Assembly: GCF_053078305.1 (NCBI RefSeq)
Contig: NZ_CP166879.1
Reading direction: 5' to 3' (one strand)
Length of the DNA stretch: 64,000 bases
Part shown: positions 40,134 through 58,797 of the stretch, piece by piece
Position numbering within the stretch: position 1 is the stretch's first letter
How the letters are laid out: each line of letters begins with the position of its first letter
The notes under the pieces: generated by a model
What the model was told of the DNA's origin: nothing
Database searches by the model: none
What the model saw: only the letters and a program-made list of their open reading frames with translations
Made by a program: the position numbers and the translations under genes

Positions 40134-40192
40134 TCGGCTTTACCACCGTCAAAAAAAACGGCGCTTTTTAGCGCCGTTTTTATTTTTCAAAC

Positions 40193-53074: not shown

Positions 53075-53872
53075 ATGAAACTGGATCTGACAGGTAAAGT
53101 CGCGGTGGTCAGCGGCTCAACCTCCGGCATTGGGCAGGGTATCGCCGCCGGACTGGCAAAAGCAGGCGCAACGGTGGTTGTCGTCGGCCGTAAACAGAGC
53201 GGCGTTGATGACGCCATGGCTGCGATTGCGGCACAAACTCCCACAGCGTCACTGCGCGGCGTGGTGGCCGATCTCAGCACCGAAGACGGCGTGGCTGCGC
53301 TGATCGCTGCAGTCCCAACGGCTGATGTGCTGGTCAATAATCTGGGCATTTTTAACGATAAAGATTTCTTTAGCGTTCCGGATGATGAGTGGATGCACTT
53401 CTATAACGTCAACGTCCTCTCCGGCGTTCGTCTGGCGCGTCACTATGCGCCAGGCATGACGGAACAGGGCTGGGGGCGGATTATCTTTGTCTCGTCCGAA
53501 TCCGGCGTGGCAATCCCTGGCGACATGATCAACTACGGCGTCACCAAAGCCGCGAATCTGGCGGTTTCTCATGGTCTGGCGAAACGACTGGCGGGGACCG
53601 GTGTGACCGTCAACGCCATTCTGCCAGGGCCAACCTTTACCGATGGCCTGAAAGAGATGCTGGCGGATGCCGCTGCACAATCGGGACGCAGTGCGCGTGA
53701 ACAGGCCGATGAATTTGTTAAAACCTCGCGTCCGAGCTCCATCATCCAGCGTGCGGCAGATGTGGAAGAAGTGGCGAATCTGGCGGTTTATCTCGCGTCA
53801 CCGCTTTCCTCGGCAACCACAGGGGCAGCCCTGCGCGTCGATGGCGGCGTCGTCGACACCCTGACAATGTAA
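53075..53872 (+). CDS. Short-chain dehydrogenase/reductase (SDR) family oxidoreductase
   Basis: Internal start MKLDLTGKVAVVSGSTSGIGQGIA (TGxxxGxG) within track ORF 52973..53872; YGVTKAA catalytic motif; ribosome-binding site present. Confidence 0.85.
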   Translation: MKLDLTGKVAVVSGSTSGIGQGIAAGLAKAGATVVVVGRKQSGVDDAMAAIAAQTPTASLRGVVADLSTEDGVAALIAAVPTADVLVNNLGIFNDKDFFSVPDDEWMHFYNVNVLSGVRLARHYAPGMTEQGWGRIIFVSSESGVAIPGDMINYGVTKAANLAVSHGLAKRLAGTGVTVNAILPGPTFTDGLKEMLADAAAQSGRSAREQADEFVKTSRPSSIIQRAADVEEVANLAVYLASPLSSATTGAALRVDGGVVDTLTM

Positions 53873-53897
53873 CCCTATAAATTAAGAGAAAATTATC

Positions 53898-54314
53898 ATG
53901 GCTAAAACAACTGTATCGATCGAAATTCCGGCTTCTGGCGACGCCGTATGGCAATTGATGGGCGGCTTTGATGCGCTGCCAGACTGGCTACCATTCATCC
54001 CGAAAAGCGTGGTGACAGAAGGCGGTCGCGTTCGTTCGCTGACAACCTCTGACGGCGGCACTGTGGTTGAACGTCTGGAAGCGTTTGATAACCGTCAACG
54101 CAGTTATACCTATTCCATTATTCAGGCACCGTTCCCGGTGGTGGATTACCTCTCCACCATTACCGTTCATGAAACCGCCGACAGCCAGGTTTCCCGTGTG
54201 GAATGGTTCGGTGAATTCACCCCGGTGAATGTGACGAACGAAGAGGCCGAGGCGCTGTTTACCGGCATCTATCGGGATGGACTCAAGGCGCTTAAGGACA
54301 ACTTTGTTGCCTGA
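53898..54314 (+). CDS. Small START/Bet v1-like (SRPBCC-type) protein of unknown function
   Basis: 138-aa ORF 25 nt after the SDR gene; family assignment is tentative. Confidence 0.6.
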   Translation: MAKTTVSIEIPASGDAVWQLMGGFDALPDWLPFIPKSVVTEGGRVRSLTTSDGGTVVERLEAFDNRQRSYTYSIIQAPFPVVDYLSTITVHETADSQVSRVEWFGEFTPVNVTNEEAEALFTGIYRDGLKALKDNFVA

Positions 54315-54471
54315 TGCGATCGACAGGCGTCGGCACGTCCGGCGTCTGATTATTAACAAAAACAGAATAGTCTATTGTCATTTGTATCATTTATGTTATC
54401 AGACAGCAGGCGTATTCTCTCCCCATCGCGTTAATAAACGCCAAACAATTAAGACACTCTGGAATATAAAC

Positions 54472-54684
54472 ATGAAAACGATCATCGCAATTTTTACCGC
54501 TTCTCTTTTCTCTGTCGCGGCGTTTAACGCATCGGCGCAAAGCGTGACAGCAACCGGTACAACACTGGATTCCGCTGAAGCGGTTATTGCGCAGAAAGCG
54601 AAAGAGATGAACGCCTCTGAATACAAAATTACCAGCGCTCGCATGGGCAATACCGTCACCATGAGTGCCGAACTGTATAAATAA
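54472..54684 (+). CDS. Small secreted stress-type protein (YdgH/BhsA/McbA-like, DUF1471)
   Basis: Internal start MKTIIAIFTASLFSVAAFNASAQ (signal peptide) then ...SEYKITSARMGNTVTMSAELYK, characteristic of the family; 70 aa. Confidence 0.7.
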   Translation: MKTIIAIFTASLFSVAAFNASAQSVTATGTTLDSAEAVIAQKAKEMNASEYKITSARMGNTVTMSAELYK

Positions 54685-54732
54685 TCGCGCGAGGAACCCA
54701 TTACGTAATTTGCTAAATATGCGCTGAATGCG

Positions 54733-55039
54733 TTGCCATTAATAAACCGTATTGTACTGCCACCGATGACGCGTTCCCGCGCCGGTGCGGGTGACGTTGC
54801 GATTGGCATGATGGCGGAGTATTACGCGCAGCGCGCCAGTGCTGGACTTATCATCAGCGAAGGTACGCAAATCAGCAGAATCGCTGCGCATAATTTTCCA
54901 CGGCACGCTGATTTACTCCGGTAAATACACCAAAGCGCGCGCCGAACAGGCGCTGGCTAACGGCTGGTCGGATCTGATTGGTTTTGGTCGTCCGTATAGT
55001 GCCAGGAGCGGAAGTTGTCGAAGGGTCATAAAGAGCTAA
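54733..55039 (+). pseudogene. Remnant of an Old Yellow Enzyme-type NADH:flavin oxidoreductase (NemA-like), internally deleted and frameshifted
   Basis: Frame 1 (54733..54924) MPLINRIVLPPMTRSRAG...MAEYYAQRASAGLIISEGTQIS resembles the OYE N-terminus; a second frame (54839..55039) ...GKYTKARAEQALANGWSDLIGFGRPY resembles the OYE C-terminus; the ~300 central residues are missing. Confidence 0.6.
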
Positions 55040-55315
55040 ACCCCGGCATTGCTTCTCAGCTGTTTATAGCCGTTCCTGGGTACAAGTGAGCACTAAGGCG
55101 AGCATTGTTATAATCACCAACCAATCACTAGTTGTGTACAAATTCTGACCGCAAAGCGAACTCTCCGGCATGCAGGTTGGAGAAAGCACAGTTGACCTAA
55201 AATGCTCCTCCAGCCAGAAACAAAAGGTGGCCGATAATTCGAAAGCAAAAAAAGATAAAGCAGGGAATGTGCCCGCAAATTCTTAATCATATAGCCAAAC
55301 CGAGCAGCGTATGAT

Positions 55316-55345
55316 ATCCAGCCCTGATACGGGCTGGATATTAAA
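55316..55345. terminator. Perfect palindromic hairpin
   Basis: ATATCCAGCCC-TGATAC-GGGCTGGATAT followed by TAAATTTTCG; just 3' of the lipoprotein gene stop and at the end of an ORF-free ~300 bp. Confidence 0.4.
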
Positions 55346-55355
55346 TTTTCGCCGG

Positions 55356-55823
55356 TCAGTTATCGCAATGACCTGGCACTGCTAACTTAACTTCAGGTTT
55401 AGAAACGACGCGGATACCTTCGCTTTCGGATACCTGTTCAAGTCCAGCCCCACCAACAAAAACGCCCATTTTGATGTACTGGCGAACAAAGTAGTTTTTC
55501 CCGGACGTGACATTGAGTGTCAGATTATTAGGTGAAAACTCGGATTCAGTTCCCAGCGTATGTGGTTGGCTGGTCGATATTTGCTGATAGAAAAAGACTC
55601 TGTCAGCCGTTTCACCAAGACAACGGCCGTCAAGATAAACATCCTTTTTTAACGCTTTACCAACAAAGCTGTCTCTGTAAACGTATAGACCGGCTTTGCC
55701 ATTTTCCGGGACCGGGAAAGACTTAGCTGTCTCGTTTTCAGCATTACTGCCCAGAGGAACCGACGCACACCCCCCCAGAAGCACTGAGGAAATAATGACT
55801 GCGCCAAATAAAATTTTATTCAT
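55356..55823 (-). CDS. Putative lipoprotein
   Basis: 155-aa ORF with lipobox (VLLGGCAS) after signal peptide. Confidence 0.75.
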   Translation of the reverse strand: MNKILFGAVIISSVLLGGCASVPLGSNAENETAKSFPVPENGKAGLYVYRDSFVGKALKKDVYLDGRCLGETADRVFFYQQISTSQPHTLGTESEFSPNNLTLNVTSGKNYFVRQYIKMGVFVGGAGLEQVSESEGIRVVSKPEVKLAVPGHCDN

Positions 55824-56161
55824 TGAATTCTCATGGAGTTAAGAAAATCGCCAAATGAGAATAAACTTATTTTACACTTATGTCATTAAAGGAGGCATTG
55901 CTTCACAACAACATCAATGTTCATCCCGGAACCGTCCACTTCCGCTTCTCGCTCAAAACGGACTGTCATATTTGATTGCATTCTGGCTACGCAACCGGTC
56001 GGTTGGAGTATGAAGTTGCTCACGAATAGCCTTAGCATCCGCAATTTCGTAGCGGGTCACCCGTACAGGTTCTTTCTAATCTCGACAGCCTCTTCCAGAG
56101 AGGTTTTCAACTCATCAAAAAAACTCATTTTATACCTCGCCTTTGAGCAGTTTCATCACGG

Positions 56162-57394
56162 TTATCTCTGCTCCCCCATCATCTCCCGCACCAGCTCCAC
56201 GCAGCGCAGGAAACGGCTGTCGTAATCTTCCTCTTCAACCCGCACAAATTCGATATTGTTCTCTTCCAGCATCTCCACCAGCAGATTCTGGAACTCTTTA
56301 CGATCCACCGAACTGCCGAGGCTGCGTAAACCATCCGCCACCCACGGCGTGTTGTTCTCCAGCAGGATCACCAGATCGAAACGGTATTCATCAATCAGCG
56401 CCTGCACGAACGGATGTTCCCGCCCTTCGTACTTTTTGCAGAACGCCTGAGTGGTGACAAAATCGGTATCGATAAATGCCACTTTATTGGCATATTTCAC
56501 CGCAAAATCAATGTATTGAGCGTGGCCCAGCGCGATTTTATCGTAGTCAGAATACTGCAATGCGATCTCATCACCGCCGAGGTGTGAAAAGACATAATCG
56601 CGGCCATATTCCCACGCACTGGTGGTGTTGAAGATATTGGCAAGTTTGTTTACCAGGGTGGATTTACCGCTCGACTCGCCGCCAAGGATCGCCACGGTAC
56701 GCACAAAAAACGGCTTCACTTCGGTAGGAATATATTCCCAGTAGCGGAACGGGTTTTCGCGGATCTGCGCACCGCTGATACTCATAAAGGTACGTTTCGG
56801 ATCGACCAGCACCGTCTCGATCCCCAGATGTTCCATATACTGTGGCGCATCGGCTTCTTCCGAGGTGTAGATCAGATCCGGCTGGATCCCTTTTTCAGCC
56901 ATAAACTTTTTGATACCGTTGCTCCACACATCCCAGCCGTGCGGATACGGCTCCATGCCCTCTTCGTTGAAAGCATGAATGCGAATATTTTTCTGATATT
57001 TAAAAGTTTGCAATAACCAGCGCAGACGATCCGGCACGGTCGGCTGCTGCGACATGGCACTGTCTTCGAACAACGCGCGGTCACGGGTATCGTCAAAACC
57101 CATAATGATATGCAGCTCGTCAACCTGGCTACAGGCGCGCTGGATAAGGTAGATATGTCCGGTATGCAGTGGGTAGAACTTACCGAATACGACACCGATC
57201 GTTTTCTTCTGCCGGGGAAACTCAAGCCCCAAAAAACGGTGCAACGCCTCCAGCTTTTGCGCGCTGGGGCTTTTAATTTTGGCATTCAGTAACTGGCTTA
57301 AATACCCTTTGGTCATACCGCTGGCATCAGCTACCTGCTGTAGCGTGCAGCCCTGTTGCTTGATGGCAGTTTTCAGGTAATCAAATGACGACAT
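56162..57394 (-). CDS. nadR: Trifunctional NAD biosynthesis/regulator protein NadR
   Basis: Track ORF 56162..57415; accepted 410-aa NadR starts at MSSFDYLKTAIKQQGCTLQQVADASGMTKGYLSQL. Confidence 0.95.
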   Translation of the reverse strand: MSSFDYLKTAIKQQGCTLQQVADASGMTKGYLSQLLNAKIKSPSAQKLEALHRFLGLEFPRQKKTIGVVFGKFYPLHTGHIYLIQRACSQVDELHIIMGFDDTRDRALFEDSAMSQQPTVPDRLRWLLQTFKYQKNIRIHAFNEEGMEPYPHGWDVWSNGIKKFMAEKGIQPDLIYTSEEADAPQYMEHLGIETVLVDPKRTFMSISGAQIRENPFRYWEYIPTEVKPFFVRTVAILGGESSGKSTLVNKLANIFNTTSAWEYGRDYVFSHLGGDEIALQYSDYDKIALGHAQYIDFAVKYANKVAFIDTDFVTTQAFCKKYEGREHPFVQALIDEYRFDLVILLENNTPWVADGLRSLGSSVDRKEFQNLLVEMLEENNIEFVRVEEEDYDSRFLRCVELVREMMGEQR

Positions 57395-57414
57395 ATCTCC
57401 CTCCGTATTTCTCA

Positions 57415-58797
57415 TTATAAGTCGTCGAACACGCTAAGCGCGTCGGAGAGTTTTTTAACGCCAAAAATCTGCATCCCTTCCGGCGCTTTTTTCGGTACGT
57501 TAGCCGCCGGAACAATCGCCCGACGAAAACCGTGTTTCGCCGCTTCAGAGATTCGTTCCTGACCGCTGGGCACCGGGCGGATCTCCCCTGCCAGCCCGAC
57601 TTCACCAAACACCACCAGATCCTGCGGTAGCGGTCTGTCACGCAGGCTGGAAACCATCGCCAGCAGTAACGCTAAGTCGGCGCTGGTTTCGGTTACCTTC
57701 ACGCCGCCGACCACGTTCACAAACACATCCTGATCGGCCATTTGCAGACCACCGTGACGGTGCAAGACAGCCAGCAGGATTGCCAGACGGTTTTGTTCCA
57801 GCCCCACTGCCACGCGGCGCGGATTCGCCATCATCGAGTGATCGACCAGCGCCTGGATCTCCACCAGCAGTGGACGCGTTCCTTCCCATACCACCATCAC
57901 TGAACTACCAGAGGTCACTTCATCGCCACGGCTTAAAAAGATTGCCGAAGGATTGCTGACTTCACGCAGCCCCTGTTCGGTCATCGCGAAGACGCCCAGC
58001 TCATTCACCGCGCCGAAGCGGTTTTTATGGCTGCGCAAGGTGCGAAAACGGGAGTCGGCATCGCCATCCAAAAGCACCGAACAGTCGATACAGTGTTCCA
58101 GCACTTTCGGGCCAGCCAGCGAACCATCTTTGGTTACGTGCCCCACCATGACAATCGCCACACCGCGCGTTTTGGCGAAGCGTGTCAAATAAGCCGCCGT
58201 TTCACGCACCTGCGCCACGCTACCAGGCGATGACTGTACATCCGCCATATGCATCACCTGGATCGAGTCAATTACCATCAGCTTCGGTTGCTCTTCTTCG
58301 GCAATCAGGCAGATCTGCTCGATGCTGGTTTCCGACAACATATTGAGATTGTCAGTCGGCAGGCCAAGGCGATGAGCGCGCATTGCCACCTGTTGCAGCG
58401 ACTCTTCGCCGGTGACATACAGCGTTTTCATCTGCTGCGCCAGTTTGCACAGCGTTTGCAGCAACAGCGTGGATTTCCCCGCACCAGGGTTACCGCCAAT
58501 CAGAATGGCACTTCCTGGCACCACGCCGCCGCCTAGTACGCGGTCGAACTCTTTAAATCCGGTGGAAAAACGCGGCAGCTCTTCAAGGCTGATATCGGAG
58601 AGTTTCTGGACTTTTGCCACCCCGGCGCTACCGGCATAGCCGCTGAGACGCTCGTTACGCGCCACCGTTGGCGACGCAGCAAGACGCACCTCGGTGATGG
58701 TGTTCCAGGCATGACAGGCACTGCACTGCCCCTGCCAGCGCGGATAATCGGCCCCGCATTCATTACAAACAAAGGCGCGTTTTGGAGCTTTTGCCAC
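57415..58797 (-). CDS. radA: DNA repair protein RadA (Sms)
   Basis: Track ORF 57415..58845; accepted 460-aa product starts at the internal codon translated V in VAKAPKRAFVCNECGADYPRWQGQC (non-ATG start inferred); Walker A GNPGAGKST. Confidence 0.94.
   Translation of the reverse strand: MAKAPKRAFVCNECGADYPRWQGQCSACHAWNTITEVRLAASPTVARNERLSGYAGSAGVAKVQKLSDISLEELPRFSTGFKEFDRVLGGGVVPGSAILIGGNPGAGKSTLLLQTLCKLAQQMKTLYVTGEESLQQVAMRAHRLGLPTDNLNMLSETSIEQICLIAEEEQPKLMVIDSIQVMHMADVQSSPGSVAQVRETAAYLTRFAKTRGVAIVMVGHVTKDGSLAGPKVLEHCIDCSVLLDGDADSRFRTLRSHKNRFGAVNELGVFAMTEQGLREVSNPSAIFLSRGDEVTSGSSVMVVWEGTRPLLVEIQALVDHSMMANPRRVAVGLEQNRLAILLAVLHRHGGLQMADQDVFVNVVGGVKVTETSADLALLLAMVSSLRDRPLPQDLVVFGEVGLAGEIRPVPSGQERISEAAKHGFRRAIVPAANVPKKAPEGMQIFGVKKLSDALSVFDDL

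Follow-up and report, generated by a model that had tools for sequence, protein, structure and literature searches.

A probable 3′ stem-loop of a DUF2846 lipoprotein gene within a chromosomal cassette bounded by phage P2 fun(Z)-type repeats

The closest described counterparts of the unit reported here are the inverted-repeat-bounded cassettes of the fun(Z) slot of phage P2. A cassette-exchange system for this slot was reportedly proposed by Nilsson, Karlsson and Haggard-Ljungquist in 2004 (Mol Biol Evol 21:1; GenBank AJ512676, AJ512680 and AJ512681). The cassettes themselves are summarized in PMC8987985. The locus studied here lies in a stretch of 64 000 nucleotides from contig NZ_CP166879.1 (assembly GCF_053078305.1), which we refer to as the window. 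Like the P2 cassettes, the unit in the window is bracketed by the same 26 bp motif in inverted orientation and shares part of the outer flank of the P2 right repeat; alternative cargo is found between the same flanks, and the same cargo is found between such repeats at another locus. Unlike them, the window copy is chromosomal, situated between a remnant of an OYE gene and a remnant of nadS beside nadR rather than in a P2 prophage, and its cargo, a DUF2846 gene with a hairpin (hairpin 1) and a tail of ∼300 bp, was found in no phage record.

For the hairpin itself, the nearest comparisons are Rho-independent terminators and other enterobacterial 3′-end stem-loops, bidirectional terminators and REP/BIME palindromes. 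With the first of these it shares a G+C-rich perfect stem, a short loop and a location a few nucleotides past a stop codon; it is also inherited with its gene, is replaced by canonical terminators in orthologues and is followed by a second hairpin with a U-run. It differs from Rho-independent terminators in having no U-tract on the gene strand here, and it may instead be a 3′-end stabilizer or need Rho or hairpin 2. As in bidirectional terminators, a symmetric hairpin lies between convergent units and an A-tract on one side serves as a U-tract for the other strand; in contrast to them, there is a short U-run on the plus-strand side only and the convergent partner is a pseudogene remnant on the far side of a cassette boundary, so that the arrangement appears to be accidental and not evolved. 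REP/BIME elements are likewise stable palindromes just past the 3′ end of a gene that may protect the mRNA, whereas hairpin 1 is not dispersed, being a single gene-specific copy of unrelated sequence. The features of the region are collected in Table 1.

Table 1. Features of the cassette and its surroundings (window coordinates).
Feature	Position	Strand	Basis and description
Left cassette-boundary repeat	54990–55015	+	GTCCGTATAGTGCCAGGAGCGGAAGT; GTGCCAG centre; GGAAGT end points into cassette
Cassette tail	55016–55246	unstranded	Apparent non-coding filler; no conserved ORF, no family match, neutral divergence
Extended −10-like element	55106–55114	+	TGTTATAAT; perfect match, no good −35; putative
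Hairpin 2 and U-run	55247–55276	−	Terminator scan; intrinsic-terminator-like
Hairpin 1	55314–55341	−	Perfect 11 bp stem, 6 nt loop; assigned as 3′ stem-loop of DUF2846 gene
DUF2846 lipoprotein gene	55823–55356	−	ORF list, 155 aa; signal peptide, lipobox LLGGC; PF11008, E = 2e-23
Promoter-like site ATGACA-17-TATTCT	55858–55886	−	Consensus scan; upstream of DUF2846 gene; putative
Right cassette-boundary repeat	55938–55963	−	GTCCGTTTTGAGCGAGAAGCGGAAGT on minus strand; GAGCGAG centre; GGAAGT end points into cassette

The cassette and its boundary repeats

The local gene order is ettA, a LysR regulator, an aldo-keto reductase, an SDR, an SRPBCC and a DUF1471 gene, the OYE remnant, the stretch that ends in hairpin 1, the DUF2846 gene (minus strand), the nadS remnant, nadR and radA; the window comes from an Escherichia chromosome, and its nadR is ∼96% identical to that of E. 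coli. The OYE remnant proposed in the initial annotation has a match to PF00724 and carries the annotation `alkene reductase, incomplete', but it ends at ∼54995, where the 26 bp repeat begins, and not at 55039 as first placed. It occupies 54733–54995 and consists of an N-terminal and a C-terminal piece, which indicates an internal deletion; the left boundary repeat truncates the sequence at GFGRPY. We find this remnant in 482 complete E. coli genomes.

The repeat has the form GTCCGYT..(GAGCGAG or GTGCCAG)..AGCGGAAGT, and the pattern GTCCGT-N11-AGCGGAAGT has exactly two matches in the 64 kb window, in inverted orientation, at the two boundary positions in Table 1. These delimit a cassette of ∼970 bp (54990–55963) in which the DUF2846 gene is the only gene. 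All of the break-points in homology coincide with the motif. Homology to E. coli strains with other cargo stops right after the left repeat, and homology to the same-cargo copy of Escherichia sp. E1V33 (locus L007) begins there. The same OYE and nadS flanks enclose a wHTH gene and TauE in one E. coli locus (L005) and a GNAT gene in another (L006), and the DUF2846 unit is found between the same repeats, with other flanks and at another locus, in E1V33. A second repeat-bounded cassette, with a 225-residue ORF, starts 17 bp after the DUF2846 cassette of E1V33 (L007 4852–5849).

The boundary repeats were surveyed in the window and in loci L005, L006, L007, L090, L093, L094, L096–L125, L136–L138 and L143. 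Of 5426 complete E. coli genomes, 726 contain the motif, at 754 places that mostly lack annotation, and there are exact matches in 27 IMG/VR prophage contigs. Usually a GAGCGAG-type site faces a GTGCCAG-type site across 0.6–4 kb of cargo; facing pairs of opposite centre type account for 19 of the 26 neighbouring long pairs. The cargo between facing repeats is varied and includes ParA, GNAT, GST, MBL-fold and membrane proteins. In L007 and in lambdoid-like prophage contigs (L100 and L118, for example) the sites form back-to-back arrays in which they are 10–17 bp apart. The arms of the repeat are mostly invariant, and a reading in which they co-vary like a hairpin was rejected. By eye, no convincing target-site duplication was found beside the repeats, and no recombinase for cassette exchange was identified here or named in the literature covered.

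The nadS gene beside nadR is itself a remnant (window ∼55964–56135, minus strand; L090 2682–2906), with the NadS model NF041265 covering only residues 1–44 of 94, and in the window it is also frameshifted. The repeat was considered as coding sequence of a nadS-like helix-turn-helix protein (`VRFEREAEV') and rejected as such: the similarity to NadS stops after residue 44, leaving ∼40 nt up to the repeat, and the repeat also lies in many non-coding contexts. A resemblance to the outer portion of the P2 `right inverted repeat' is seen in the intervening ∼40 nt, which include TCAAAT(A/C)TGACA. In L098 a RefSeq CDS for a `helix-turn-helix domain-containing protein' (5208–5438) overlaps a palindromic boundary repeat (5276–5303), and the C-terminal half of this CDS may be an annotation artefact.

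A BLAST search against phage records placed the motif next to fun(Z) in phage P2 (NC_001895). In the Z-region records of P2-EC46 and P2-EC48 (AJ512680 and AJ512681), which we take to belong to the 2004 work of Nilsson, Karlsson and Haggard-Ljungquist, the annotated left (3–115) and right (3166–3256) inverted repeats have it at their inner ends. In P2-EC46, the annotated `right inverted repeat' opens with the motif of the window's right repeat and the same outer flank, TCAAATCTGACA. Neither a search of the literature with the sequence nor a tblastn search for the DUF2846 cargo in phage records gave a match. Judged on its sequence, the window unit has the checkable features of a P2 fun(Z)-type cassette, namely inverted repeats, a repeat annotated in the Z-region and exchangeable cargo. 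We classify it as a chromosomal fun(Z)-type cassette with DUF2846 cargo, its exchange by site-specific recombination being putative.

The stem-loop downstream of the DUF2846 gene

Hairpin 1 has the sequence ATATCCAGCCC-TGATAC-GGGCTGGATAT and is the perfect 11 bp stem first noticed in the initial annotation; six of its 11 base pairs are G–C. The energy predicted for the minus strand is −20.5 kcal/mol and that for the plus strand −22.9 kcal/mol, the stem there gaining two pairs and reaching 13 bp. It is single-copy in the window with up to three mismatches tolerated, and its sequence is absent from all of 100 shuffles. Perfect hairpins with a stem of at least 11 bp and a loop of 3–8 nt occur at six sites in the window against 0.07 expected from dinucleotide shuffles, on which basis hairpin 1 is non-random; it is nevertheless one of several terminator-like hairpins in the window and belongs to a common class. 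The other five such hairpins (6443–6470, 17751–17780, 28846–28873, 37766–37795 and 40154–40181) are presumably terminators of other genes.

On the gene strand, hairpin 1 begins 14 nt beyond the DUF2846 stop codon (55358–55356). Its gene-strand tail is CAUACGCU, which contains no U-tract, and the minus-strand context in this lineage, CAUACGCUGCU, is also without one. The window, E1V33, Pantoea and Yersinia copies share the gene-strand tail CAU(A/U)CGCU and an A-tract before the hairpin. This A-tract, which lies 5′ of the hairpin on the gene strand and reads as TAAATTTT on the plus strand, accounts for the short T-run on the plus-strand side. The T-rich run that had been described there is real (TAAATTTTCG, with four consecutive T at 55346–55349) but modest, and a consensus terminator scan called hairpin 1 on neither strand. 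Of the features that define a Rho-independent terminator, hairpin 1 has the G+C-rich stem-loop (stem of at least 5 bp, loop of 3–8 nt) and the position (shortly 3′ of a same-strand stop codon and conserved with the gene) but lacks the U-tract, which is present in hairpin 2 and in the homologous hairpins of L008, L011 and L141. Since the U-tract is missing in this lineage, we do not class hairpin 1 as a textbook intrinsic terminator; `terminator' may really stand for a 3′-end-defining or stabilizing stem-loop.

Hairpin 2 lies 38 nt downstream of hairpin 1 on the minus strand. Its stem-loop, GCGGG-CACATTC-CCTGC (55276–55260), is followed by the U-run TTTATCTTTTTTT (55259–55247), and it is the only terminator-like site called between 54300 and 56300. 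It is weak, with an RNAfold energy of −7.9 kcal/mol for the containing segment 55245–55285, and its stem carries a double change from C–G to U–A in L090. An attempt to assign its strand from wobble pairs was abandoned, as the G·U pair of the window fits the minus strand and the U·G pair of L007 fits the plus strand.

The association of hairpin 1 with the DUF2846 gene was followed in fetched loci that encode relatives of the DUF2846 protein; the identical protein is present in 44 collection blocks, CP057673.1 among them. A homologous hairpin, with the core CCAGCC...GGCTGG placed 16–25 nt past the stop codon in relatives, travels with the gene in ten lineages, and its carriers include Escherichia sp. 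E1V33, Pantoea brenneri, Yersinia enterocolitica, two Enterobacter species, Brenneria alni, Raoultella, Scandinavium and a Klebsiella-like contig. In E1V33 the gene occupies a different chromosomal locus from that in the window, and the flanks of the gene and hairpin are unrelated among the carrier genomes. At the nucleotide level, similarity to the window runs no further than the hairpin or just past it (to 55312 in L010, 55316 in Raoultella and 55284 in Pantoea), and within 1.15 Mb of fetched loci the hairpin motif is found only after DUF2846 genes.

The covariation analysis suggested in the initial annotation bore the structure out. Pairing is retained in 96% of 100 stem cells from ten distinct sequences, compared with 20–40% when the 3′ partner is slid, and two stem pairs are changed on both sides from U–A to C–G. 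The covariation score is equalled in eight of 500 column shuffles, and a version of the analysis with eight sequences gives the same picture. Five of the ten pairs counted in the ten-sequence set are invariant and the compared sequences are related; the covariation is modest. Because the hairpin is inherited with the gene across genera, we assign it to the minus strand and, from these comparisons, place it at the 3′ end of the DUF2846 transcription unit. The suggestion that it is a terminator shielding the lipoprotein gene was the closest of the three earlier readings, in that a terminator-type hairpin is associated with that gene; what did not hold is its role, as it appears to be the gene's own minus-strand 3′ end and not primarily a plus-strand shield.

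Orthologues at 79–82% protein identity have unrelated hairpins resembling canonical terminators in the same position, such as AAAGCCTGC-GTCA-GCAGGTTTTTC in L143 and CCCGGG...CCCGGGCTTTATTAT in L139. Among the homologous hairpins, those of L008, L011 and L141 carry their U-rich tail on the gene strand, and the Raoultella copy, like that of the window, has no U-rich tail. A hairpin of −10 kcal/mol or lower lies within 75 nt of the stop codon in 63 of 79 DUF2846 loci, a count without a background control.

Several further observations concern the surroundings of the gene. A convergent arrangement of the DUF2846 gene and a YdgH/BhsA-like (DUF1471) gene recurs in Raoultella and Enterobacter sp. 10-1 (L087–L089 and L008), next to redox enzymes and a LysR regulator, a loose parallel to the window island; the DUF1471 proteins of the two settings are merely 38% identical over 40 residues. 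In Pantoea brenneri a gene resembling a Tn3-family transposase (L009 2490–5084; N-terminal sequence, by eye) ends ∼100 bp after the DUF2846 stop codon, and homology to the window tail ends where this gene ends (window 55284). The putative promoter upstream of the DUF2846 gene is only partly covered by the homology shared with Raoultella and Scandinavium, which starts at 55873–55871. A mini-ORF of 12 codons (MNIDVVVKQCLL; window 55886–55924, minus strand) begins 14 nt inside the GAGCGAG-type repeat; the copies of E1V33 and Pantoea brenneri have kept its start (ATGAACATTGATGT).

The non-coding tail

The stretch before the hairpin had been described as free of ORFs, in agreement with what we find: the longest ORFs in the tail are of 58 residues (minus strand), 41 residues (minus) and 38 residues (plus), and there is no conserved ORF in 55016–55313. 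The 58- and 38-residue frames are interrupted by stop codons in E1V33, and neither the candidate tail ORFs nor a 98-residue ORF of L007 has a Pfam or NCBIfam match. In a six-frame tblastn comparison with the E1V33 copy all frames are about equally conserved, and the same search of all fetched loci returned close Escherichia copies only, with the frames alike. No Rfam 15 covariance model matches either strand of 53500–57500 at E values up to 1, and ARAGORN found no tRNA.

By BLAST, the tail has no homologue in E. coli complete genomes, plasmids or phages; the sole match of the query was the DUF2846 CDS, 72% identical, on an 8.6 kb plasmid. An exact-pattern scan gave no match in viral contigs and, in metagenomes, one real Escherichia-like contig of 1 kb (L131) and nine chance 20-mers. 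The relatives of the tail (L001–L004, L090–L092, L007 and L131) are all close Escherichia copies. It is absent from every non-Escherichia DUF2846 locus, whereas the hairpin is kept. Of the outcomes that the initial annotation named as refuting its reading, a lack of conservation past the hairpin is what we see for the ∼300 bp.

Over 55016–55245 the tail is 93.9% identical to that of L007, compared with 94.2% at the third codon positions of the adjacent gene, a measure of neutrality that is essentially one informative comparison. The covariation term given by RNAalifold is almost nil (−0.76), and the sole compensatory pair lies in hairpin 2. The 321 nt region folds somewhat better than shuffles (z = −2.5), equally on both strands. 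On the sequences compared, the ∼230 bp between hairpin 2 and the left repeat look like neutrally drifting filler with no detectable function, and the ∼300 bp as a whole need no special function or explanation.

Interpretation of the stem-loop

We consider it likely that the stretch is the 3′ non-coding part of the ∼970 bp DUF2846 cassette and that hairpin 1 is the gene's own 3′ stem-loop. Anatomy, co-inheritance with the gene, structural conservation, replacement by other terminators and neutral drift of the tail are observations; termination and stabilization by hairpin 1 are what we infer from them. As the DUF2846 mRNA is made, hairpin 1 would fold 14 nt past the stop codon and would end transcription, protect the 3′ end of the mRNA from exonucleases, or both. 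As hairpin 1 has no gene-strand U-tract in the Escherichia, Pantoea and Yersinia lineage, full termination would probably depend on Rho or on hairpin 2, which is weaker and lies with its U-run 38 nt downstream (55276–55247). Since its A-tract reads as TAAATTTT on the plus strand and the terminator scan gave no other plus-strand site from 54684 to 55314, hairpin 1 may also impede read-through on that strand from the DUF1471 gene and the OYE remnant and so serve the convergent units as a bidirectional terminator.

This last effect could conversely be taken as the main one, with the hairpin terminating read-through from the DUF1471 gene (stop at 54684) and the OYE remnant, the ∼300 bp as their 3′ UTR and the lipoprotein gene shielded from antisense transcription. 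The convergent genes, the U-richer side of the hairpin in this lineage, which is the plus strand, and the lack of another plus-strand terminator-like site between the DUF1471 stop codon and hairpin 1 are consistent with such a role. Yet the hairpin is inherited with DUF2846 in genomes without a DUF1471 or OYE neighbour, the U-rich tail is on the gene strand in L008, L011 and L093, and a cassette boundary separates the OYE remnant from the tail, E. coli strains with the same remnant carrying other cargo. For these reasons the plus-strand role appears secondary and local, compatible with a 3′ stem-loop of DUF2846 as a bidirectional effect, and we regard it as unlikely to be the principal one. 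An origin of the stretch as 3′ UTR of the OYE remnant, as had been proposed, is not supported in view of the same boundary: the remnant stops at the left repeat, after which E. coli strains with the same remnant have different DNA. A role of the hairpin in mobility or recombination, as a REP-like palindrome, an attC-like folded site or a transposon end, seems to us very improbable. It would fit the location of the DUF2846 gene in a mobile cassette that is scattered among unrelated contexts, the end of cross-genus homology at the hairpin and the six of 11 window-hairpin stem pairs that are invariant across genera (five by the ten-pair count), but each locus has a single copy, with no further ones in the window or the 1.15 Mb, no partner repeat lies on the other side of the DUF2846 gene, and no integron core site (GTTRRRY or RYYYAAC) can be read beside the hairpin. 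Moreover, the true cassette boundaries are the 26 bp repeats ∼300 and ∼600 bp away, and ordinary terminators replace the hairpin in more distant orthologues. Identification as an integron attC was rejected given the missing R′′ and R′ core sites (RYYYAAC...GTTRRRY), the perfect stem without extrahelical bases and the single copy, and identification as REP/BIME given the one window copy and the occurrence only after DUF2846 in 1.15 Mb. A search of E. coli complete genomes with an 883 nt query gave no match to the hairpin, its sensitivity being limited for a 28 nt match.

The remaining alternatives place a function in the tail. An independent plus-strand small RNA of ∼225–230 nt would start ∼7 nt past TGTTATAAT, end at hairpin 1 and UAAAUUUU, and, being antisense to the DUF2846 3′ UTR, could regulate DUF2846. 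The promoter search that had been suggested did find an extended −10 element, the sole perfect TGNTATAAT of the 64 kb, in non-coding DNA 200 bp upstream of hairpin 1; it is kept in four of four tail copies (as TGTTATAAT or TGTTAAAAT in L090, L131 and L007), and the 13 bp plus-strand stem is followed by four U. One match is not above chance, however (1.54 expected; at least one in 81 of 100 shuffles), the element has no −35 and the plus-strand promoter scan is negative there. The shuffle z-score favours folding of the region, though equally on both strands, and the missing Rfam match, divergence at the rate of third codon positions, the restriction of the only compensatory pair to hairpin 2 and the lack of the tail in non-Escherichia loci that keep the hairpin argue against an RNA gene. 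The perfect extended −10 leaves the earlier small-RNA proposal some room, but no homologues turned up outside close Escherichia copies, and we hold such an RNA to be rather improbable. In a more specific version, which we rate as a slightly longer shot, the tail encodes a ∼230 nt plus-strand RNA that is driven by the extended −10, terminated by hairpin 1 in the opposite sense and regulates, by antisense, either the 3′ UTR and terminator of DUF2846 or the 41-residue ORF; if true, the fun(Z)-type cassette would carry a regulatory module as part of its cargo. It is hardly credible that the ∼300 bp are a decayed gene or encode a small protein, for which the candidate is the 41-residue minus-strand ORF (55189–55064), resembling a type I toxin with an antisense promoter. 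The frame is open in four of four copies and has a hydrophobic stretch, WLVIITMLALVLTC, and the extended −10 element lies antisense within it. Against this, it has a GTG start with the nearest Shine–Dalgarno-like sequence, GGAGGAG, read 15 nt away and poorly placed; it differs from L007 by four amino-acid (nonsynonymous) and two silent (synonymous) changes, which is near-neutral; the antisense promoter is not above chance; and there is no family match, all six frames are equally conserved and the other two ORFs are broken in L007.

We therefore return to hairpin 1 as the probable 3′ stem-loop of the DUF2846 gene. Taken alone, the hairpin has little significance, being real but ordinary; previously unannotated, it is now assigned to a gene and a strand. 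The useful by-product is the context, in which the lipoprotein gene, the hairpin and the tail make up a discrete cassette with the repeats of the P2 fun(Z) slot. The 26 bp motif offers annotators a simple marker for delimiting such cassettes in chromosomes and prophages, and the repeat-bounded cassette accounts for the fact that the nadR–ettA island differs between Escherichia strains exactly at these points.
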